Shown here: one piece after another, positions 32,421 through 41,391 of the stretch
How positions within the stretch are numbered: position 1 is the stretch's first letter
Layout of the letters: the number at the start of each line of letters is the position of its first letter
NCBI GenBank assembly: GCA_963798085.1
Contig: CAWCRS010000007.1
Location: forward strand, 640,001-704,000
DNA: 64,000 bases
Origin: an uncultured Gemmatimonadales bacterium
GTDB taxonomy: Bacteria > Gemmatimonadota > Gemmatimonadetes > Longimicrobiales > RSA9
Direction: 5' to 3'
The notes under the pieces: generated by a model
Databases searched by the model: none
Seen by the model: only the letters and a program-made list of their open reading frames with translations
Told to the model about the DNA's origin: nothing
Position numbers and translations under genes: made by a program

Positions 32421-34922
32421 TTACCGGATTGTGGCGTCGCTCCGGTAGTAGTCACCCAGCAGGTGCTCCGAGAAGTACTCCATCATCATGTGGTTGAAGT
32501 AGGGCTGCATGTCGCCGTAGCCGTGGGGCTTGCCCGGCAACATCATGAAGTCGAAGCGCTTGTTGGCCTTGATGAGTTCGTTCATGAGCCGGATCGTGCC
32601 GGCCGGGTGCACGTTGTTGTCCATGTCGCCGTGCGCTAACATCAGGTTGCCCTTCAGGTTGGCGGCCAGCTCGGCGTTGGTGGGCACGTGGATCTCGAAC
32701 TTCACGTCCTGCTCCTGTTCCTGAGCCGAAGCGTCGGACTGGCCATCGTTGCCACTGCGGTCGACGACCGTTCCCTTCTTCTGCGTGGCCACGATCTTGA
32801 GCCCGTGATACTGCTCGCTCCAGTTCTGGTTGTAGACATTGTTGTCATGATTGCCCGATGATGACACGCCCACCTTGAAGAAATCGTTGTAGGGCGGCAG
32901 CATCATCGCGGCCGCGGTCATGAAGCCGCCGCCGGAGTGGCCGAAGATGCCGACCTTGTCGAGGTCGATCCAGGAAAAGCGCGCGGCCAGCTGCTCGATG
33001 CCCGCCTTCTTGTCCGCCAGACCGTAGTCGCGGAGGTTGAAGTAACCGTAGTTCTGGTAGGCGTTCGAGCGCAGCGGATTGCCGCCGCGATTGCCGATCT
33101 GGATCACGATGAAGCCGAGCGCCGCGAGACGCTGCTCCACGTTGTTGCCGCTGAACGTCGCGCTGACCTCTTCCGTCTGCGGGCCCGGATAGACGTGGGC
33201 AATGATCGGGTACTTCTTCGTGGAATCGAAGTCGAACGGCTTCCACATGTTGCCGTAAATGTCGGTAATGCCGTCCGCCGCCTTCACCACGAAGCGCTCC
33301 GGCGGCTTCCAGCCCAGCTCTTTCAGCTTGCTGACATCCATTTCAGCAAGCGGCATCACTGTGGCGCCCGTGGCATCGCGGATGACCGCCTGGTTGGGCA
33401 GGTCGGGGCGCGAGAAGTTGTCGACAATGTAGCGCTTGCTGGGCGACAGCTGCTCGTTGTGCTCGCCCTCACCCGCGTCCAGCAGGGCGAGGCCCGTGCC
33501 ATCGAGGCTCACACGGTAGAGATGGTGGTAATATGGATTCTCTCCCGGCTCACGGCCCACGCCGCGCACGTACAGCACGCCGCGTACGGAGTCGACGGCG
33601 AGGATGTTGTCCGCGCGCCATTCCCCTGAGGTGACGGGTCCCTTGAGCGTCCCGTCATTGCTGTAGAGGTAGTAGTGCCCCCAGCCACTTCGCTCCGACC
33701 ACCAGAGGAAATCACCGCCCGCCTTCACATAGCGCGCGTTCTGGCGCTCGAGGTTGGCGTTCTCCACGCTCTCGGTTATGAGCGTCTTGATCGTCTGCGA
33801 CGGCATCGCCACATCGATCATTTCCATGTTGCGTTGCAGCCGGTCGCGACGCGTCAGGCGCACATGATCCGAGCCGGTGCCGTTCCAGTGAACATCGAAG
33901 AGTCGCTGGTCCTTCCATTTCGCGACGTTGATCGGCGCGACCGCCTTCTCGCCCCGGTGATAGAAATACAGTTCCTGCTGCGGCACGTTCTCCTCGCCTG
34001 GCATGGCGTACTTGTAGGACACGAGGACGGGCCGCGGCTGCGCCAGCACATTGACGAGGTACAGCTCCTTCACCTTGCGCGTGTCCTCACGCGTCACGAC
34101 AAAGGCCTTCGAGTCAGGCGACCAGGTGACCTGCGCGCGCACACGCGGGTCGCGTGACCGCGACTGCTGCTGCTCGTCCTGCTGGTCTTCCTGCTGCTGC
34201 TGCTGCTGTTGCTGCTGCTGCAACTGGTTCGCCTGCGTCGTGTCGCGGGCGCCGAAGCTGTGATACTGCTCGCCATCCGTGCTCACCTGGATGGTATCGC
34301 CGCTCTTGACCTCGACGACGTACAGGTTGTGATCGCGGGCGAACGCAAAGGCGGTACTGTCCGGCGAGTAGTTGCGGAAGTTCACATTGCCACGTCCGCC
34401 ACCGCCGAAGCCACCGCCGCCCCGGCCGCCGCCGCGGCCGCCGAAGCCGGGAACGCTGTCACGCACCGCCCGCCCGATGTGCTTGAGAGTCTCGCCCGCC
34501 AGGCTCCATTCGTAGCGCAACGAGTCCACGTTGAAACGGATCGACTTGTGGTCGTCCGTAAACACGACGTTGGTGAACGGCAGGTTGAATGCGTCGTACG
34601 GCTTGTGGTGCAGCGTCGAGAGCTGCGTGGCGAGCTTGGCCTGATTGAAGAGCGGCTTCTTGGTCTTCGTGATGGGCACAACCAGATAGAACGTCGATCC
34701 GGTGTGATCCCGCCAGTTGTACCAGAGTGAATCGCTCTCGCCAATGAAGCGCGGCTGCACGTTGTTGCTGTAAATGATCTGCCGCACCTGTGCATCGTCG
34801 AACTTGTTGCTCAGCTCCCAGTTGGCGCGATTGACGTGCGCCTGCTGGGCACGAGCCTGCGCCACGCCAATGAGCAGCATCGCCGCGGCCGCGAACGTGG
34901 TTGTCCGCCTGGGAATGTGCAT
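32421..34922 (-). CDS. S9B dipeptidyl peptidase IV family protein, secreted
   Basis: YPGPQ, GHSGGG nucleophile, HGDMDNNVH, catalytic H; signal peptide; internal poly-Gln tract. Confidence 0.93.
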   Translation of the reverse strand: MHIPRRTTTFAAAAMLLIGVAQARAQQAHVNRANWELSNKFDDAQVRQIIYSNNVQPRFIGESDSLWYNWRDHTGSTFYLVVPITKTKKPLFNQAKLATQLSTLHHKPYDAFNLPFTNVVFTDDHKSIRFNVDSLRYEWSLAGETLKHIGRAVRDSVPGFGGRGGGRGGGGFGGGGRGNVNFRNYSPDSTAFAFARDHNLYVVEVKSGDTIQVSTDGEQYHSFGARDTTQANQLQQQQQQQQQQEDQQDEQQQSRSRDPRVRAQVTWSPDSKAFVVTREDTRKVKELYLVNVLAQPRPVLVSYKYAMPGEENVPQQELYFYHRGEKAVAPINVAKWKDQRLFDVHWNGTGSDHVRLTRRDRLQRNMEMIDVAMPSQTIKTLITESVENANLERQNARYVKAGGDFLWWSERSGWGHYYLYSNDGTLKGPVTSGEWRADNILAVDSVRGVLYVRGVGREPGENPYYHHLYRVSLDGTGLALLDAGEGEHNEQLSPSKRYIVDNFSRPDLPNQAVIRDATGATVMPLAEMDVSKLKELGWKPPERFVVKAADGITDIYGNMWKPFDFDSTKKYPIIAHVYPGPQTEEVSATFSGNNVEQRLAALGFIVIQIGNRGGNPLRSNAYQNYGYFNLRDYGLADKKAGIEQLAARFSWIDLDKVGIFGHSGGGFMTAAAMMLPPYNDFFKVGVSSSGNHDNNVYNQNWSEQYHGLKIVATQKKGTVVDRSGNDGQSDASAQEQEQDVKFEIHVPTNAELAANLKGNLMLAHGDMDNNVHPAGTIRLMNELIKANKRFDFMMLPGKPHGYGDMQPYFNHMMMEYFSEHLLGDYYRSDATIR

Positions 34923-35221
34923 GGTCGGATTCTCCGTCGGTCAGTACGCTGTGACTCGCGACGCCGTAGTCCGCGCGGACGGCTGGATCGCAAGCGCGGC
35001 GGCCGGTGTCGTGGTGGGACGGTCAGCGTGAGGAAGATAGGGGGTTGTCGCCCGCTACGGGAGTATACAGGTCGGCATGCAACGGACCCGGGACGGATGG
35101 GCCGGCGAGGCGGGGCGGAACCCGCTGCTCGGGGATGGACCGGCGCGCCCACCCTCGGCATCCGCCAGAGACCTTGCAGATTGCCAGCCAAAACGGTGAG
35201 CGGCGTCGTCGTCCACAATTC

Positions 35222-35279
35222 ATAAATCATTCATGAGCAATAACTTATATGAATCACACCCGGTGGTGCGATTCCTGCT
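35222..35279 (+). promoter_or_regulatory. IHF-like palindrome (35222-35248) plus sigma54 promoter (35264-35279)
   Basis: ataaatcatt-N7-aataacttat; TGGTGCGATTCCTGCT matches TGGCACG-N4-TTGCW spacing. Confidence 0.6.
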
Positions 35280-35347
35280 CGAACGACGGGTGCCCCAGGC
35301 ACGAGTGCGTCCGGGGCCTGTCTGATTCCTGACCCGAGAGGTGAGGC

Positions 35348-35950
35348 ATGCGCCGACGCTGGCACATACCCGGGGCCGCGGCCGTTCTGGCCATCGCGCT
35401 GTTCTGCCTGAGTTGCGACCGAAGCTCTCCCACCGACACACCGCTGAATCCGCCCGCCAGTGGAGCCCTGCTGGGGCTGCCGCGTCTGGGCGGAGCGGAT
35501 CCGACGCCGCAGCTGCCACGCGGGATGCGGTTCATCGAGGAGGAGCGGTCCGGCGGTGGCCAGGATCTGGTAACGGGCCTCTTCGGTCTGCTGGGCGGTG
35601 AGCTGCACCTGAACGGCGAATCACTGCTGGTGCCGGAGGGCGCGGTGCTGCGGTTGACGCTGTTCACGATGGAGACACCGGACACGAAGGTCATCAATGT
35701 CAACCTGAGTGCGCTGACGGGCGATCTGCTGCGCAACGTGCTGTCGCTGCTGGGCCTGTTCCAGAAGCCGGTGACGGTGGAGTTGTCGTATGCGCACGCG
35801 ACGAACGTCACGGATCCGGGCAAGCTGGTGATCGTGCGACTGCTGGACGACGGCAAGGTCGAGGTCCTGCCGACGCGTGTGGACCGGCAGCGCAAGGTAG
35901 TGTCAGCGCAGCTCGATCACTTCTCGAAGTACGCAATGGCATCCAACTGA
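35348..35950 (+). CDS. Putative lipoprotein with ZU5-like domain and terminal HFS autoproteolysis motif
   Basis: Signal ending CLSC; GGEL....SLLVPEGAV and FQKPVTVELSY are ZU5-like; ends LDHFSKYAMASN; GAGGTGAGG RBS. Confidence 0.75.
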   Translation: MRRRWHIPGAAAVLAIALFCLSCDRSSPTDTPLNPPASGALLGLPRLGGADPTPQLPRGMRFIEEERSGGGQDLVTGLFGLLGGELHLNGESLLVPEGAVLRLTLFTMETPDTKVINVNLSALTGDLLRNVLSLLGLFQKPVTVELSYAHATNVTDPGKLVIVRLLDDGKVEVLPTRVDRQRKVVSAQLDHFSKYAMASN

Positions 35951-35953
35951 CGC

Positions 35954-37609
35954 ATGGAACGCCGGCTCGAGTTGCACAGCGCGCGCGACACCGAGGAGAC
36001 ACTGGAGTCGCTGGTCGAGCAGGGCCGGGCCGCCGAACGCGCGGGCGCATGGGATGAAGCGCTGCGCGCGTTCGACGGCGCGTTCCGCAAGCTGCGCCGC
36101 GAGCACGGAGCGGAGCGCGCGGCGGAGCTGCTGCGCTGGATCGGGACGGTGTTCCGCAATCGCGGCGAGCTGGAGAATGCGCACGAGTTGTACGAAGCGA
36201 GTCTGGCCGTTGCCGAAGCCGCAGCGCTGCCCTACCACATCGCCTCCGCGCTCAACTGTCTGGCCATCATCGCGCAGTTTCGCGCCAACGTGGATGATGC
36301 GGAGCAGCTCTACCTGCGCGCGAGTGAACTGGCGCAGCAGGCCGGTGACGACCGGCTGGCGGCCATGATCGATCAGAACGTAGGAACGCTGGCTAACACG
36401 AAAGGCAGCTACGACGCGGCGCTCGGTCACTATCGCTCGGCGCTCCGCCGTTTCCGCCGTCTGCAGGATGAAGTCGCCGCGGCGTGGGTGCTCAACAACA
36501 TGGGCATGGCGCACGTCGACCTGGGGCAGTGGAACAACGCGGTGCGCGCGTTCGACGAAGCCTTCGAGCTGGCGGATCGCCAGCGCGACACGCACCTGAT
36601 CGGCACCATCGAGCTGAACCGCGCCGAGCTGCATCTCAAGCGCGGTGTTGTGGGCGATGCGCGCGACTGCTGCGACCGCGCGTTCGAGGTGTTCAGCCGG
36701 GTGGGCTCGCAGAGCGGTCTGGGCGAGGCCTACAAGTTCTACGGTGTACTCTACCGCGAGATGGGCAAGCCGGGTCTGGCCACCACGCATCTGCGCAACG
36801 CCATCGAAACGGCAGTGGGCTGTGAGGACCGGCTGCTGGAAGCGGAAGCGCGAAGCGAGGCTGCGCTGCTGCATCTCGATAACGGCGAGAATCGCACCGC
36901 GCTCGAGTGCATGAACCGCGCGCACCGGCTGTTCACGGACCTGCGCGCGCGTGCCGAGCTGCTGGATGTGGATTCCCGTCTGGACCGGCTGGAGGAGACG
37001 TTCCTGAAGGTGGTGAAGGCCTGGGGCGAGTCGATCGAGTCCAAGGATCGGTACACCGCGGGTCACTGCGAGCGTGTGGCTGACTACGCCTGTCTGCTGG
37101 CGGAAGCACTGGGCTTCCAGGGTCGCGATCTTACGTGGATGCGCATGGGCGGGTTCCTGCACGATGTGGGCAAGATCGTGGTGCCGCCCGCGATCCTGAA
37201 CAAACCGGGAAAACTGAGTCCCGAGGAATTCGACGTGATGAAGACACACACCACGGCTGGTGACGAGCTGACTACGCCGCTCAACTTTCCGTGGGACATC
37301 CGGCCGATCGTGCGCAACCACCACGAACGCTGGGACGGCACAGGCTATCCCGACGGCCTCGAGGGAGAGGACATCCCGCTGGTGGCGCGCATTCTGTGCG
37401 TCGCGGATGTCTACGACGCGCTCACGACGGCGCGCAGCTACCGGCCGGCGCTGCCCGCGCTCGAGGCCCTGCGCATCATGGAGCGCGAGTCCGGCAGCAA
37501 TCTGGATCCGAAGATCTTTCCCATCTTCCGCCAGCTGATTCTGGAGCATGCCGCCCAGCGCGGCGGCATGGCACGGCTGCGCACCCCGGGCGCGTTCGCC
37601 GCCGCCTAG
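35954..37609 (+). CDS. TPR-repeat + HD-GYP phosphodiesterase
   Basis: N-terminal TPR array; YTAGHCERV, LHDVGK, HHERWDGTGYP, ADVYDAL, RSYR; no signal or TM segment. Confidence 0.92.
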   Translation: MERRLELHSARDTEETLESLVEQGRAAERAGAWDEALRAFDGAFRKLRREHGAERAAELLRWIGTVFRNRGELENAHELYEASLAVAEAAALPYHIASALNCLAIIAQFRANVDDAEQLYLRASELAQQAGDDRLAAMIDQNVGTLANTKGSYDAALGHYRSALRRFRRLQDEVAAAWVLNNMGMAHVDLGQWNNAVRAFDEAFELADRQRDTHLIGTIELNRAELHLKRGVVGDARDCCDRAFEVFSRVGSQSGLGEAYKFYGVLYREMGKPGLATTHLRNAIETAVGCEDRLLEAEARSEAALLHLDNGENRTALECMNRAHRLFTDLRARAELLDVDSRLDRLEETFLKVVKAWGESIESKDRYTAGHCERVADYACLLAEALGFQGRDLTWMRMGGFLHDVGKIVVPPAILNKPGKLSPEEFDVMKTHTTAGDELTTPLNFPWDIRPIVRNHHERWDGTGYPDGLEGEDIPLVARILCVADVYDALTTARSYRPALPALEALRIMERESGSNLDPKIFPIFRQLILEHAAQRGGMARLRTPGAFAAA

Positions 37610-37639
37610 CCGATAACAGCCTGTCAGACGAGAGCCATC

Positions 37640-37903
37640 ATGGCGCCGTCCGACCGGATCCGACTCCTGTGGTTGCGCGGATCGCTGTTCGCCACCGCGC
37701 TCCTGTCTGCGCTCGTGCTGCAGGGTTGCGGCCGGCGCGGGCCGGCAGACTCGCCACTGTCGCCTCCGGTGGCGAGCGCCGATGCCGCGGCATCCCGTGA
37801 GTCAGGCGACACACCCGCGTCCGGTCGCTCGCAGGGATTCACCTTCGTCGAGGAATACCGCGCGCCGGGCTCCGCCTCGGTCAGCACGATGGCCTCCAAC
37901 TGA
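37640..37903 (+). CDS. Small lipoprotein, ZU5-less paralog of 35348-35950, ending MASN
   Basis: Lipobox LQGC; shares P.D.PL.PP(.)AS, G..F.EE.R..G and MASN-stop with the upstream gene. Confidence 0.75.
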   Translation: MAPSDRIRLLWLRGSLFATALLSALVLQGCGRRGPADSPLSPPVASADAAASRESGDTPASGRSQGFTFVEEYRAPGSASVSTMASN

Positions 37904-37909
37904 TCCGGG

Positions 37910-39601
37910 TCAACGGCTGGCGGTGCGCGGCTGGGCGTCGGCCAGCCACCAGCTTCCCACATTGATGAACGCGCCACGCACATCCATAACGGCCCCGCGC
38001 AGTCGCGCGCGTGCGGCGTAGAGATTCGGGACGTACCAGAGGAAGGTCCAGGGCTGCTCGTCCCGGATGATGCGCTGCACCCGGTGCCAGCGCGGGATCG
38101 CGTCGCGGCGATCCGTGAGCGTGGCCAGCGTGTCGAGCGTGGCATCCACGGTGGCGTTGTGAAACGAGGCGAGCTGGTATTCGCCGTTGATGGCGGCGGA
38201 ATGGAAGGTGTCGCGCAGGTTGATGCGGAAATCCGCGTCCCACGCCATGAGCACGGCGTCGAAGTCGCGGGCCGGGCTCGAGATCTGGCCGATGAGCGTG
38301 GTGAACTCGACGGGTCGCACGCTCATGCTGACACCCACGTTCGCAAGATCCGCCTGGATCATTTCCGCGACGTCACGGGTGAAGGCGTTGCTCGTGGGGA
38401 TCTTCAGCTCGATGCGGAAGGGCCGGCCGTCCGGCAGCCGCAGCTTGCCGGAGGCGTCGGGGCGCAGACCCGCTTCGGCGAAAAGAGCGCGCGCGGCCGC
38501 CGTGTCGTACGGCAGCGGGCGCACGGAATCGGGGAACGCCCAGTGGAACGGGCCGATCGGACCGGAGGCCAGCTCGCCGTGGCCGCCGCGCAGCACCTGC
38601 AGGATCTGCGGACGGTTGATCGACAGGGTGAGCGCACGCCGCACCCGCGCATCATCCAGAGGTCGGCGCTTTCCGTTCCAGCCGATGAAGTGGTACTGCG
38701 TCGCCGCTTTCACGATGGGCACGACGCCGGCCTCGCCCCGGAGTCGCGTCAGATCCTCCGCGCGCGGCGCGAGAATCAGGTCCGCGTTGCCGGTGAGCAG
38801 CTCGGTCACCTGCGCGGTGTTCTCGCTGATGACTCGCCACACCACGCGGTCCAGGTGCGGCCGGCCGCCCAGACCCGCCGGAAAGTCGGGATTGGCGTCG
38901 AACACCCAGCGATCGCCGGCGCGATACTCCGCGAAGCGGAACGGACCGTTGCCGATGGGCGCGTGATTGAATCCGGCCTGACGCATGCGCGCGGGCGGAA
39001 TCGAATCCAGCGCGTGCTTCGGCATGATGGGCAGGAACGCCCATGTCAGCAGCGGATCGATGAAGCGGTCGAGTGTGAAGCGGACGGTGAAGGAATCCAC
39101 CACGGATACGGACTTCCAGTGCATGAGATCATCGGCATTGGGAAAGCCGCTGGCCGGATCGCGCGCCCGGTCGAACGTGAATGCCACGTCCCATGCGGTC
39201 GTCTTCGGTCCATCGCTCCAGCGCACGTCGTCGCGCATGTGGAAGACCAGCGCGGTGTCGCCCTGCCAGTCCCAGCTGCGCGCCAGCGCGGGCTGAAAGC
39301 CGCCCTCCACATCCAGGGATACGAGTGGCAGGAAGAGCGCGTGCAGCAGGAGGTCCTGCGTGTAGGACTCGGACGCAATGAACGCATTCATGGGTCCGAC
39401 GTCGTTGGGGCCGGCGATCACCAGCGTACCACCATCCCGCGGCGCGGCATCAGCGGCGGACGCGACCGGCAGCGGCGCGTTGTCCCGGCACGCTGTGCCC
39501 AGCGCGGCGGTCAGTGCGAGGAGCAGCCGGCCGAGCGTAAGAGCCGGGTGCATGCGACCGGCGGAAGCTGCGTCCGCCGCACGAAATCGGAATCCGCCCA
39601 T
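37910..39601 (-). CDS. Peptide ABC transporter substrate-binding protein (SBP family 5, OppA/DppA-like); alternative start 39553
   Basis: Lipoprotein signal LGTAC, PALARSW, WSDG..TAWDVAFT, PIGNGPF, RVRRAL...INR. Confidence 0.9.
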   Translation of the reverse strand: MGGFRFRAADAASAGRMHPALTLGRLLLALTAALGTACRDNAPLPVASAADAAPRDGGTLVIAGPNDVGPMNAFIASESYTQDLLLHALFLPLVSLDVEGGFQPALARSWDWQGDTALVFHMRDDVRWSDGPKTTAWDVAFTFDRARDPASGFPNADDLMHWKSVSVVDSFTVRFTLDRFIDPLLTWAFLPIMPKHALDSIPPARMRQAGFNHAPIGNGPFRFAEYRAGDRWVFDANPDFPAGLGGRPHLDRVVWRVISENTAQVTELLTGNADLILAPRAEDLTRLRGEAGVVPIVKAATQYHFIGWNGKRRPLDDARVRRALTLSINRPQILQVLRGGHGELASGPIGPFHWAFPDSVRPLPYDTAAARALFAEAGLRPDASGKLRLPDGRPFRIELKIPTSNAFTRDVAEMIQADLANVGVSMSVRPVEFTTLIGQISSPARDFDAVLMAWDADFRINLRDTFHSAAINGEYQLASFHNATVDATLDTLATLTDRRDAIPRWHRVQRIIRDEQPWTFLWYVPNLYAARARLRGAVMDVRGAFINVGSWWLADAQPRTASR

Positions 39602-39843
39602 GGTTTCGACCTTCGGATGCGCGACGAGAGCGGCTGCGCGGGGAGCAGCCGGCGTTCGGGGAGTGAGCCGTCTCTTCAGTCTCGGCAGTCCCGGCCGGCT
39701 GGCGCAGTGGAAGAAGCGCCCCGGGGAAGGGGCCGGAGCTCCGGGCACGCGGTTGCATTGCAGGCCTGGCCGGCAACACCGAAGTTGCGGTGACGTGCGA
39801 CTGCGGGACCTCCGGTCCCGATCCCTGCAACCGACTCCGGATC

Positions 39844-41391
39844 ATGAGGACCTGCGCGGGTCTCGGCGCCCTTCTGCTGGGCAGTGCAGTCGCGTGTGCC
39901 AGGCCGCAGCCGGTATCGCTGGTATCGGTGGAACGCGTCATTACGCACGACAACCGGGCGGCCGCGGGCCGCCTGCGCAATGACGAGTTAGAGATCCACC
40001 TCGAGCTGCGCGCCGGCGAATGGTACCCGGATTCGCCATCGGGGCCGGCTGGCGTCGTGCAGACCTTCGCGCTCGAAGGCGGGCCGCCGCTGATTCCCGG
40101 ACCGCTCATCCGCGTGCGCACCGGCACGACCATCCACGCGACCGTGCACAACCCGCTCCCCGATTCGACGCTCGTGGTGCACGGCCTGCACACCCGGCCC
40201 GGTTCTGGCACCGATTCCCTCGTGGTCCGTCCCGGCGAGACGCGGGACGTGCGGTTCCCCGCGGGCCAGCCGGGCACCCACTTCTACTGGGGCTCGACCT
40301 CGCACACGGACATGGAGTCCCGACTCGGCAGCGACAGCCAGCTGGCCGGCGCGTTCATCATCGACCCCGCAGACGGGCCGGCGCACGAAGACCGCGTGTT
40401 CGTCATCGGGCAACTGGTTCGATCCCCCGGATTCCGCAGGCCCGCCGCCCGTCGTCGAGCGCGATGTGATGGTGATCAACGGACGGTCGTGGCCATGGAC
40501 CGAGCGCTTCGACCTGCTGCAGGGCGATACCATCTACTGGCGCTGGCTGAACCCCACGCCCAACGCACACCCAATGCACCTGCACGGTTTCTTCTACGAC
40601 GTCACCAGCCGCGGCAGCTGGGCGGCAGACACGGTGTTAGAGAGGGGGCCGCGCCAGGTGGTCACGGAAACCATGCTGCCGGGTTCGACGTTCGCCATGC
40701 GCTGGGTCGCGGAAAGGCCGGGCAACTGGCTGTTCCACTGCCACTTTGCGTTCCACGTGTCGCATTTCCTCTCGTTCCGCAAGATTCCGGACCCCGAGGA
40801 TGCCGATCCGCCGGGCGTGTTGGAGCATTCGGCCAGCAGCATGCGCGGGTTGATCCTGGGCTTGCACGTGCGGGAGCGGAACGACCGTCCGGGCGAGGCT
40901 GTCAGGGGGACCGAAAGCGCGGCCGCGAGTGCGGCGGACACGGCGACGCCGCCGCGGCGGGTCCGCCTGCTGGTGGACGCGAAGAATCCGGGACCCCGCG
41001 AACAGTTCGGTTATGTCGTGCAGAACGGGGCGGAACCGGCGCGTGACTCCGTCCTCGCGCTTCACGCCGCCACGCGCCGGCACGTTCATCTACCATTCGC
41101 ACTCGAACGAAGACGCGCGTGTTCATCGCACTGGCGCGGCGGGCGCCACCGGCAGGGAAATGGGTGGGACGTACCGCCGCGGACTACCAGCTGGCGGAGT
41201 GGCGCGCGGTGGCGAAGGATGGCGCCGATCTGCCCGCCGCGCAGCAGGTGAGCGGGCCGGCCTGGATCGGCATGGGACCGGGCGAGACCGCCGACTTTGC
41301 GTTCACACCCACCATCGCCGGCGACCTGACGATGCAGGTCGTGACGCAGGTCGAGGGGTGGGTGCTCGATCTGCCGCTACACGTGCGGTAG
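39844..41391 (+). pseudogene. Multicopper oxidase, frameshifted and apparently internally deleted
   Basis: HGLH, HPMHLHG, WLFHCHFAFH, GTFIYHSH and TADFAFTP occur in different frames; the second half is compressed. Confidence 0.7.

Follow-up and report, generated by a model that had tools for sequence, protein, structure and literature searches.

A conserved pairing of a ZU5-type lipoprotein with a TPR-HD-GYP protein in Gemmatimonadota as a candidate caged-peptide signaling cassette

Introduction

In the GAIN domain of adhesion G-protein-coupled receptors (GPCRs), where the strand concerned is called the Stachel, and in the FIIND of NLRP1 and CARD8, the last strand is held cryptic and non-covalently within the domain and becomes active once it is freed from the remainder of the fold. 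In RRNPP systems (Rap-Phr, NprR-NprX, PlcR-PapR, PrgX and AimR-AimP), an exported precursor is encoded beside a cytoplasmic tetratricopeptide repeat (TPR) receptor, and the signal is a short C-terminal peptide with a link to Opp-type import. To our knowledge, oligopeptide permeases supply cytoplasmic peptide receptors almost exclusively in Firmicutes and their phages, and few links from envelope state to cyclic di-GMP (c-di-GMP) are known in diderm bacteria outside the Proteobacteria. Here we describe a locus of an uncultured Gemmatimonadales bacterium that shares features with both kinds of system. It encodes ZU5lp, a small lipoprotein with a predicted autoproteolytic β-sandwich, directly followed by a protein that joins TPRs to an HD-GYP domain. 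The locus lies within a stretch of 64,000 nucleotides, hereafter the window (assembly GCA_963798085.1, contig CAWCRS010000007.1, positions 640,001 to 704,000), and coordinates given without a locus or contig name are those of the window.

Autopeptidase domains of this kind have been described in bacteria, in other settings. The accessible portion of Zhang et al. 2012 (PMC3482391) unites the ZU5, GPS/GAIN and Nup98 autopeptidase domains and reports them in bacterial polymorphic toxins. The main text of Brogan & Rudner (bioRxiv 10.64898/2026.05.12.724683) describes microbial GAIN-like MAIN domains that cut between F and S of an HFS motif, as established by Edman degradation, with cleavage seen in vitro and in vivo and with products that stay associated. 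According to the same text, MAIN proteins are large and consist of a signal peptide, an enzymatic or adhesion ectodomain, the domain itself and a C-terminal cell-surface anchor, and no signaling has yet been linked to the MAIN C-terminal fragment; that main text nowhere contains the strings "lipoprotein", "TPR" or "Gemmatimon". On the output side, the accessible portion of a study of RcbAB from Vibrio vulnificus (PMC12282931) describes a bicistronic operon whose TPR-only product controls the second product, RcbB, a c-di-GMP enzyme (a GGDEF cyclase) fused to TPRs. A search of the open-access and bioRxiv literature found no description of the cassette reported here; the superfamily alone is described there, not its minimal lipoprotein form.

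Results

Conservation of the lipoprotein-TPR pair

The ZU5lp gene (35348..35950, + strand) encodes 200 residues in the open reading frame (ORF) list, its first ATG being at 35348 and not at 35222. The TPR-HD-GYP gene (35954..37609, +; 551 residues by the ORF list, domains by Pfam) starts 3 nt after the ZU5lp stop, and a third gene, ORF3 (37640..37903, +; 87 residues, C-terminus SVSTMASN), follows after a further 30 nt. A first-pass annotation, made by a model from the letters and an ORF list, had described this layout as three tightly spaced, co-oriented genes in which a TPR + HD-GYP protein lies between two exported proteins that both end in S-x-x-x-M-A-S-N, with an OppA-like gene convergent and a DPP-IV gene divergent. 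The raw sequence, the ORF list and Pfam bear out each of these observations.

The lipoprotein-TPR pair is strongly conserved across the phylum. The lipoprotein family comprises 14,692 representatives (clustered at 50% identity) at E ≤ 0.001, 3,905 at 1e-10 and 594 at 1e-30, and its profile finds members in 158 of the 401 genomes sampled from the phylum, in 71 of 148 genera; the genome tally takes in three unpublished genomes (G057, G182 and G097). We surveyed 80 loci, namely 20 wide loci at the best matches and the next 60 consecutive matches, the latter sampled so as not to select on score. In the wide loci, the lipoprotein gene nearly always lies directly 5' of a TPR gene on the same strand, and the partner falls into one of two classes: TPR-only proteins of 310–360 residues and TPR-HD-GYP proteins of 525–600 residues. 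Among the consecutive copies, 46 of 60 are followed on their own strand by a TPR ORF that begins no more than 350 nt away (34 of the 46 with HD-GYP), and these pairings span many genera and three families. A further 3 of the 60 copies head tandem arrays that precede a TPR gene. Over all 80 loci, 79 of 100 lipoprotein ORFs have an adjoining TPR gene. The synteny that the first-pass annotation had anticipated among homologs is thus present.

The reverse search, which started from the TPR-HD-GYP protein, found the lipoprotein upstream in 4 of 7 metagenome loci, with one other locus cut at the gene start. These metagenome relatives of the TPR-HD-GYP protein are at most 48% identical to it, and the closest lipoprotein homologs are ~58% identical to ZU5lp. 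The closest named relatives are metagenome-assembled genomes (MAGs) of Longimicrobiales and Gemmatimonadaceae, which have an adjacent TPR-HD-GYP gene and lipoprotein tails reading DHFSRYCMISD, ...CMATN, ...AMATN and ...CMIAN. A Calditrichales MAG (OZ254086.1, locus L212 1146-8338) carries eight tandem ZU5-type lipoprotein genes, with tails of two kinds, HFSRYAIGTEY and HFSRY[AV]MAYGW.

A second cassette type combines a sigma-54 activator (Sigma54_activat, 5.9e-68; HTH_8), a lipoprotein ending in GF[ST]RYA[LI]AY, in which the His of HFS is replaced, and a TPR-only protein of 330 residues. It occurs at L033 (3021-4979, -) and L035 (11585-14548, +) and also at L137, L149, L157, L163 and L173, and often lies a few kb from an HFS/TPR-HD-GYP cassette. 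The output takes the form of a fused HD-GYP domain, of a TPR-only protein with a separate TPR-HD-GYP protein, or of a sigma-54 activator, and the lipoprotein-TPR pair thus acts like an input module to which different outputs can be fitted. Neither the wide loci nor the clustering of neighboring genes revealed a membrane-protein gene in the cassette.

A minimal ZU5-type lipoprotein with a short, conserved tail

The N-terminus of ZU5lp is basic, then hydrophobic, and ends in Cys23; as read from the sequence, it forms a signal peptide with lipobox (35348..35416, +), followed by Asp. The lipobox Cys is invariant in 26 homologs and at least 90% conserved in an alignment of 36 sequences. We considered whether the Asp at position +2 after this Cys generally retains the family in the inner membrane and rejected the idea, as this Asp is present in only 19 of 150 representatives, though it is common in the window's clade.

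The Pfam ZU5 match of the protein is sub-threshold (E 0.18, 12.5 versus 21 bits), NCBIfam holds no model for ZU5lp, and ESM Atlas matches are confined to uncharacterized clusters. The AlphaFold2 model, built with an alignment of 36 homologs, is a β-sandwich with a predicted local distance difference test score (pLDDT) of 83 overall and above 90 for residues 60–200. Its best Foldseek match is the ZU5 domain of ankyrin (4d8o; E 1.2e-4, probability 1.00), and further matches are UNC5b (3g5b), the ZO-1 ZU5 domain (2kxs) and GAIN domains (4dlo and 8oek); a profile search of PDB sequences with the ZU5lp family reached ankyrin ZU5 at E 0.006. By its predicted structure, ZU5lp is hence a member of the ZU5/GAIN(MAIN)-type β-sandwich fold over residues ~60–200. 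The ZO-1 domain (PDB 2kxs), which we take to end in ...DHF and to receive its last strand in trans from a partner peptide, aligns in the profile alignment such that its ...IDHF falls on the ...LDHF of the family.

The C-terminus of ZU5lp reads ...LDHFSKYAMASN, and its final residues are DHF|SKYAMASN. The predicted autoproteolytic site, H191-F192-S193 (35918..35926, +; expected cut F|S), occupies the turn that joins the final two strands of the AlphaFold2 model, residues 184–189 and 194–199. Over 36 sequences F192, S193 and Y195 are invariant and H191 is at least 90% conserved, and HFS is present in 144 of the 150 best family representatives. Given the experiments on related HFS domains, ZU5lp probably cleaves itself between F192 and S193.

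The eight residues that cleavage would free, SKYAMASN (35924..35947, +), form the predicted last β strand, with a pLDDT of ~95 for residues 194–199. Their number hardly varies in the family: in the best 150 representatives the C-terminus lies 7 residues after the cut in 105, 8 in 26 and 9 in 4. Together, 135 of the 150 end 7–9 residues after the cut. Since the protein stops 7–8 residues after HF|S, self-cleavage would yield a free hepta- or octapeptide, in this case SKYAMASN. This exact ending is found in 20 of 26 homologs of the window's clade, and the commonest tails among the 100 lipoprotein ORFs of the surveyed genomes are SRYAVAY (20) and SRYAVAW (16). A second ZU5-type lipoprotein of the same genome, encoded on another contig (C1:223793-224473), bears a long Lys/Glu-rich linker and is otherwise ~30% identical to ZU5lp, and it ends in the identical DHFSKYAMASN. 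Four sequences carry a second copy of the tail at the extreme C-terminus: those at L040 and L048 (with the two ends HFSRYVIAF-SDYVIAW and HFSGYVLRSK-SRYAVAY), P0101 (HFSRYSLAR-SKYAMASN) and P0060, where the duplication is partial.

At L058 (3535-4919) two tandem lipoprotein genes precede the closest metagenomic TPR-HD-GYP gene (48% identity). Both lipoproteins read past the usual end (HFSDYSLAWPSRTRR; ...FGLAWPSRCLLRVICL), which may represent an extended tail class or an altered stop.

The TPR-HD-GYP protein

The 551-residue partner matches HD_5 (5.8e-38; 130.7 bits versus a cut-off of 27.2) and TPR_12 (7.6e-31) of Pfam. Its translation contains no N-terminal hydrophobic segment and, as far as the sequence indicates, the protein is cytoplasmic; it is the only member of its family in the genome. 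The HD-GYP domain (37034..37516, +; Pfam HD_5) has its HD (H403, D404) and HHERWDGTGYP (H456-P466) motifs intact, and H403, D404, H456, H457, E458, G462, G464, Y465 and P466 are invariant in 15 orthologs. The nearest solved HD-GYP structure is that of V-cGAP3 (5z7c; 3.2e-49), which is cGAMP-specific, followed by the c-di-GMP enzymes 4mcw (5.7e-33) and 4r8z.

The TPR part (36002..36985, +) is predicted by AlphaFold2 to form a closed superhelix of 17 helices, or ~8 repeats, with a pLDDT of 95.2. On its A helices runs a ladder of Asn residues, N101 (LNC), N142 (QNV), N182 (LNN) and N222 (LNR), which the first-pass annotation had likened to the conserved Asn contacts of RRNPP receptors. The ladder is present and conserved, in that the ortholog alignment shows N142 and N182 without exception and keeps N101 and N222 to at least 90%, but it belongs to the ordinary TPR_12 consensus. 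By sequence, the TPR part resembles kinesin light chain, LGN/Pins and designed TPRs of the PDB. Superposition of its model with VIA-align gave matches to RRNPP proteins over ~270–330 residues, that is, the whole domain, with Z scores in the range 22–28 for Rap, NprR and AimR proteins, among them 28.1 for a phage Rap with pheromone, 26.7 for RapF, 24.0 for NprR and 23.4 for AimR. The modeled structure is thus compatible with an RRNPP-like receptor, and not diagnostic of one.

To relate the tail to its candidate receptor, 79 lipoprotein ORFs were each paired with the adjacent TPR ORF, in an analysis not corrected for phylogeny. After average-product correction, tail columns occur in the pairs ranked 1, 3, 8, 20 and 24 of 41,760 lipoprotein-by-TPR column pairs. 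The TPR residues paired with them belong to A helices; they are T218/I219, which precede N222 by one turn, F109, on the helix of N101, and S254. With down-weighting at 80% identity, the tail columns rank 1, 5, 6, 18 and 97 of 149. A predicted complex of TPR residues 1–345 with lipoprotein residues 165–200, rather than with the free 8-mer and without controls, reached scores of 0.22 and 0.15, where the mark is 0.32, and weighs neither way on binding.

The extreme C-terminus of the TPR-HD-GYP protein, encoded at 37592-37609, reads GAFAAA, and 7 of 15 orthologs end in Ala-Ala. Such ends resemble C-terminal degradation tags and may hint at regulated proteolysis.

A recurrent family-5 binding protein

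Convergent with ORF3, and separated from it by 6 nt between the two stops, lies an orphan gene for a family-5 solute-binding lipoprotein of the OppA/DppA type (37910..39748, -). It matches Pfam SBP_bac_5 (4.5e-76; 256.8 bits versus a cut-off of 32.4), and no NCBIfam equivalog model, which would assign a ligand, comes near its cut-off; the probable start is M66 at 39553, with the lipobox LGTAC. A gene of this family is present within 20 of the 80 surveyed loci, and in a blind clustering of neighbors only TPR and the lipoprotein itself recurred more often than SBP_bac_5, which was present in 21 of 85 loci. In ~10 genera the gene adjoins the cassette directly, in variable orientation. The genomes hold few family-5 genes, 3 in the window's genome of 6.2 Mb and 4–5 in each of five others of 3.1–4.3 Mb, and for that reason one would be expected in fewer than 2% of loci of 10–16 kb.

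A quick IQ-TREE tree of 36 sequences, 20 of them cassette-proximal (19 from 19 surveyed loci and that of the window), placed 18 of the 20 in one clade of 22, with a Shimodaira-Hasegawa-like approximate likelihood ratio test (SH-aLRT) value of 100. This clade includes a pure clade of 11, and most of the remaining family-5 copies of these genomes lie outside it. The binding protein of the window groups as sister (SH-aLRT 100) with the one encoded beside the lipoprotein and TPR genes at L179, in a same-family genome, and this pair falls in a different clade, beside the binding protein of the window's genome that is linked to OppABCDF. As the pair lies outside the main clade, the link between binding protein and cassette arose at least twice. 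A complete OppA-B-C-D-F-type operon is present elsewhere in the window's genome (L192).

ORF3 and the flanking sequence

ORF3 begins with a basic, then hydrophobic segment followed by Cys30 and ends in GSASVSTMASN. Only 4 of the 58,850 ORFs of at least 60 residues in the whole 6.2-Mb assembly end in MASN, namely ZU5lp, the second ZU5-type lipoprotein, ORF3 and one Cys/Arg-rich ORF of spurious look, and the ending common to ZU5lp and ORF3 is therefore beyond chance. The third-codon-position G+C content of the ORF3 frame (0.82) is like that of the neighboring genes. The first-pass annotation had taken ORF3 for a second SxxxMASN precursor, which its distribution does not support: no homolog of 47–153 residues was found among 5.8 billion proteins, and no such minigene is present in 92 other loci bar one probable remnant in the Calditrichales array. 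ORF3 looks instead like a ZU5lp paralog devoid of its domain, because it is 35% identical to the N-terminus of ZU5lp over the first 66 aligned residues (E 5e-10). Layouts of the form lipoprotein-TPR-lipoprotein occur at L048 and L138, and in view of these ORF3 is most likely a second ZU5lp copy that lost its domain by an in-frame internal deletion specific to this lineage. It is dispensable for the caged-peptide model discussed below.

The divergent upstream gene (32421..34922, -) encodes a DPP-IV-type peptidase (Pfam DPPIV_N + Peptidase_S9). We rejected it as a component of the system, since it is not a recurrent neighbor: its family is not among the recurrent neighbor families in the blind clustering of 85 loci, and DPP-IV was seen in 1 other of the 20 wide loci, as a weak match 5 kb off. 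The first-pass suggestion of a linked DPP-IV is accordingly not upheld by conservation. The N-terminal propeller region of this protein contains, at 34160-34460 (-), a Gly/Arg-rich stretch GGRGGGRGGGGFGGGGRG and, in the same region, ten consecutive Gln that lead into sequence rich in Gln, Glu and Asp.

A scan of 34900-40000 for sigma-70 promoters and terminators gave no match exceeding shuffled sequences. Upstream of ZU5lp lies an AT-rich inverted repeat, TTCATAAATCATTCATGAGCAATAACTTATATGAA, at 35225-35262 (+), and after it a GG-N10-GC site, TGGTGCGATTCCTGCT, at 35264-35279 (+), ~70 nt 5' of the ZU5lp start. As a sigma-54 promoter this site is unsupported; it has 3 mismatches, and the window holds 92 such matches versus 128 expected. 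Beyond the binding-protein gene, an ORF at 39790-41046 (+) is overlapped in another frame by one at 40466-41251 (+), and as read from their translations each resembles a part of a single multicopper-oxidase-type gene, the second bearing HCH...H and HLHG motifs. The split across 39790-41251 may reflect a frameshift or a sequencing error.

Discussion

A caged-peptide model and the points that weigh on it

We infer a route that comprises peptide release, import, TPR binding and an effect on the enzyme. ZU5lp would be a lipid-anchored periplasmic protein with little beyond its autoproteolytic β-sandwich, and after cleavage the peptide would be kept non-covalently as the last strand, that is, caged. 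Were the lipoprotein unfolded, degraded or pulled, the peptide would leave its cage, be captured by the cassette-linked family-5 binding protein and be imported by an Opp-type ABC transporter encoded elsewhere. The TPR groove would then bind it, the activity of the HD-GYP domain would be switched, and the level of c-di-GMP or of another cyclic dinucleotide would shift. That the caged tail is set free, taken up and then recognized by the TPR domain is, in our estimate, a serious possibility that falls somewhat short of an even chance. More tentative is the full form of the proposal, in which envelope damage, proteolysis or force would uncage the heptapeptide, a dedicated binding protein and Opp would import it, and TPR receptors would set cyclic dinucleotides and, in the sister cassettes, sigma-54 transcription, as a bacterial counterpart of the tethered agonist of adhesion GPCRs. 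With a tail that changes so little from genus to genus, we favor a peptide that informs the cell about the condition of its own envelope, or about density, over a strain-specific pheromone; a private pheromone code is unlikely because the tail is a predicted core strand and near-invariant.

In favor of the caged-peptide proposal stand the fold and HFS motif of the lipoprotein, its fixed C-terminus and the terminal tail duplications, the synteny, the recurrent binding protein together with the OppABCDF-type operon, a TPR superhelix that superposes on peptide-binding Rap, NprR and AimR and on the C-degron receptor APPBP2, and the top-ranked corrected covariation pairs. Several observations weigh against this proposal. 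The conservation of the tail could be purely structural, given that it is a confident, integral strand that may never leave the domain, and we know of no peptide pheromones that are near-invariant in the way of this tail. Paralogs without the His, which read GFS, GFT or SFS, retain both the tail and the TPR neighbor. Conversely, 11 of the 60 sampled copies have no TPR neighbor (one of them at a contig end and one located after a TPR gene), the second ZU5-type lipoprotein of the window's genome has the same tail and no TPR gene nearby, and the eight-copy Calditrichales array has no TPR gene within 5 kb. Three quarters of the loci are without a binding-protein gene nearby. On the side of the candidate receptor, the 39 PDB sequences reached at E ≤ 0.001 include no RRNPP protein, and TPR superhelices from outside RRNPP, non-peptide ones among them, superpose on the TPR domain equally well; non-RRNPP Z scores were 31.5 for APC5, 31.2 for APPBP2 and 29.8 for MalT domain III. 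Finally, with plain normalized mutual information the tail columns rank 22, 35, 87 and 140 of 145, and with down-weighting at 60% identity they rank 14, 16, 19, 71 and 83 of 150. The covariation of tail and TPR pocket that the first-pass annotation had proposed to look for is thus visible in the corrected pairs ranked 1, 3 and 8 and fades on down-weighting at 60%; we regard it as suggestive and not robust.

Alternative explanations

The main alternative is that the genes are indeed linked while the tail serves as a structural strand only. The lipoprotein would then be a periplasmic scaffold or sensor to which the TPR protein is coupled in another way, for instance by binding the unexported precursor as a chaperone or as an export or maturation checkpoint, or by sensing other imported peptides derived from nutrients or the cell wall. 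A confident core strand as conserved as residues needed for catalysis or structure, the variants without His that nonetheless have their tail and TPR neighbor, and the lack of robust covariation are all in keeping with this explanation. RcbAB, as described in the accessible portion of its report, offers a precedent in a TPR-only partner that regulates a TPR-fused c-di-GMP enzyme (PMC12282931). A purely structural tail leaves unexplained why the protein so strictly terminates 7–9 residues after the cut and why the tail is duplicated at the terminus in several sequences, and in a cassette without a membrane protein it provides no route across the membrane. The binding protein recruited twice also fits a peptide ligand, although that ligand need not be the tail. 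We consider this explanation possible, though rather unlikely.

The circuit put forward in the first-pass annotation was one of classical RRNPP quorum sensing, in which both exported proteins are precursors, SxxxMASN is the code, Opp re-imports the peptide and DPP-IV processes it. The shared SxxxMASN ending of the two ORFs, the superposition of the TPR domain on Rap, NprR and AimR, and a binding-protein gene that is adjacent here and recurrent elsewhere speak for it. With ORF3 a singleton, absent as a minigene from 92 other loci bar one likely remnant, and DPP-IV not a recurrent neighbor, two of its components fall away; against it, too, the tails stay alike from one genus to another and in both paralogs of the window's genome, and no RRNPP protein was found by sequence. 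The first-pass reading is thus supported in part, by the synteny and the recurrent binding protein, and by a TPR superposition that non-RRNPP superhelices match equally well. As an account of the locus, the classical form is improbable.

A shedding device like that of the MAIN-domain proteins, releasing a surface protein by shear with no role in signaling, would account for the common superfamily and HFS motif; with an N-terminal anchor, no ectodomain and 7–8 residues after the cut, nothing but the peptide could be shed, and the synteny with the TPR and binding-protein genes would go unexplained, which makes this alternative very improbable indeed. Chance adjacency without a functional link, to which the 11 of 60 sampled copies without a TPR neighbor might point, is contradicted by a TPR gene adjoining 46 of 60 copies in many genera and three families and is the most far-fetched of all.

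Significance

The pairing of a minimal ZU5-type lipoprotein with a TPR/HD-GYP protein and a binding protein may constitute an undescribed route of peptide signaling. If the caged-peptide model is correct, it would amount to peptide-import signaling in diderm bacteria by proteins unrelated in sequence to RRNPP, and autoproteolytic GAIN/ZU5-type domains would gain a signaling role in bacteria. The cassette is abundant, with 3,905 lipoprotein representatives (E ≤ 1e-10) and presence in 158 of 401 genomes of a phylum of soil bacteria.

Comparison with known systems

Among the systems reviewed at the outset, MAIN proteins, as the main text of Brogan & Rudner (bioRxiv 10.64898/2026.05.12.724683) presents them, share with ZU5lp the β-sandwich superfamily, an HFS motif in the turn before the last strand, and export. 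In ZU5lp this architecture is inverted and minimal, with a lipid anchor at the N-terminus, no ectodomain and an end 8 residues after the predicted cut. RcbAB, likened here by description only and from the accessible portion of its report (PMC12282931), resembles the layouts of a TPR-only gene with a TPR-HD-GYP gene at L044, L045 and L053-L055, and differs in that its enzyme is a GGDEF cyclase and that no ZU5-type lipoprotein is described with it.

The ZU5 domain of ZO-1 differs from ZU5lp in that it is eukaryotic and cytoplasmic and that cleavage is not involved. The animal GAIN and FIIND strands stay tethered to their receptor or effector domain, whereas the strand of ZU5lp would be a free, diffusible 7–8-mer and its candidate receptor is a separate cytoplasmic protein.

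The likeness to RRNPP systems lies in the arrangement: the gene of a candidate exported precursor adjoins that of a TPR receptor candidate, the proposed signal is a short C-terminal peptide, and a binding protein of the Opp type is linked to the pair. The two are unrelated in sequence, and the host here is a diderm of another phylum. The RRNPP precursor is a propeptide of 40–60 residues cut by external proteases, whereas the candidate precursor here is a folded lipoprotein predicted to cleave itself, and its peptide is near-invariant. Where RRNPP receptors act through a helix-turn-helix domain or a phosphatase, the TPR proteins of these cassettes would act through an HD-GYP domain or a sigma-54 activator.

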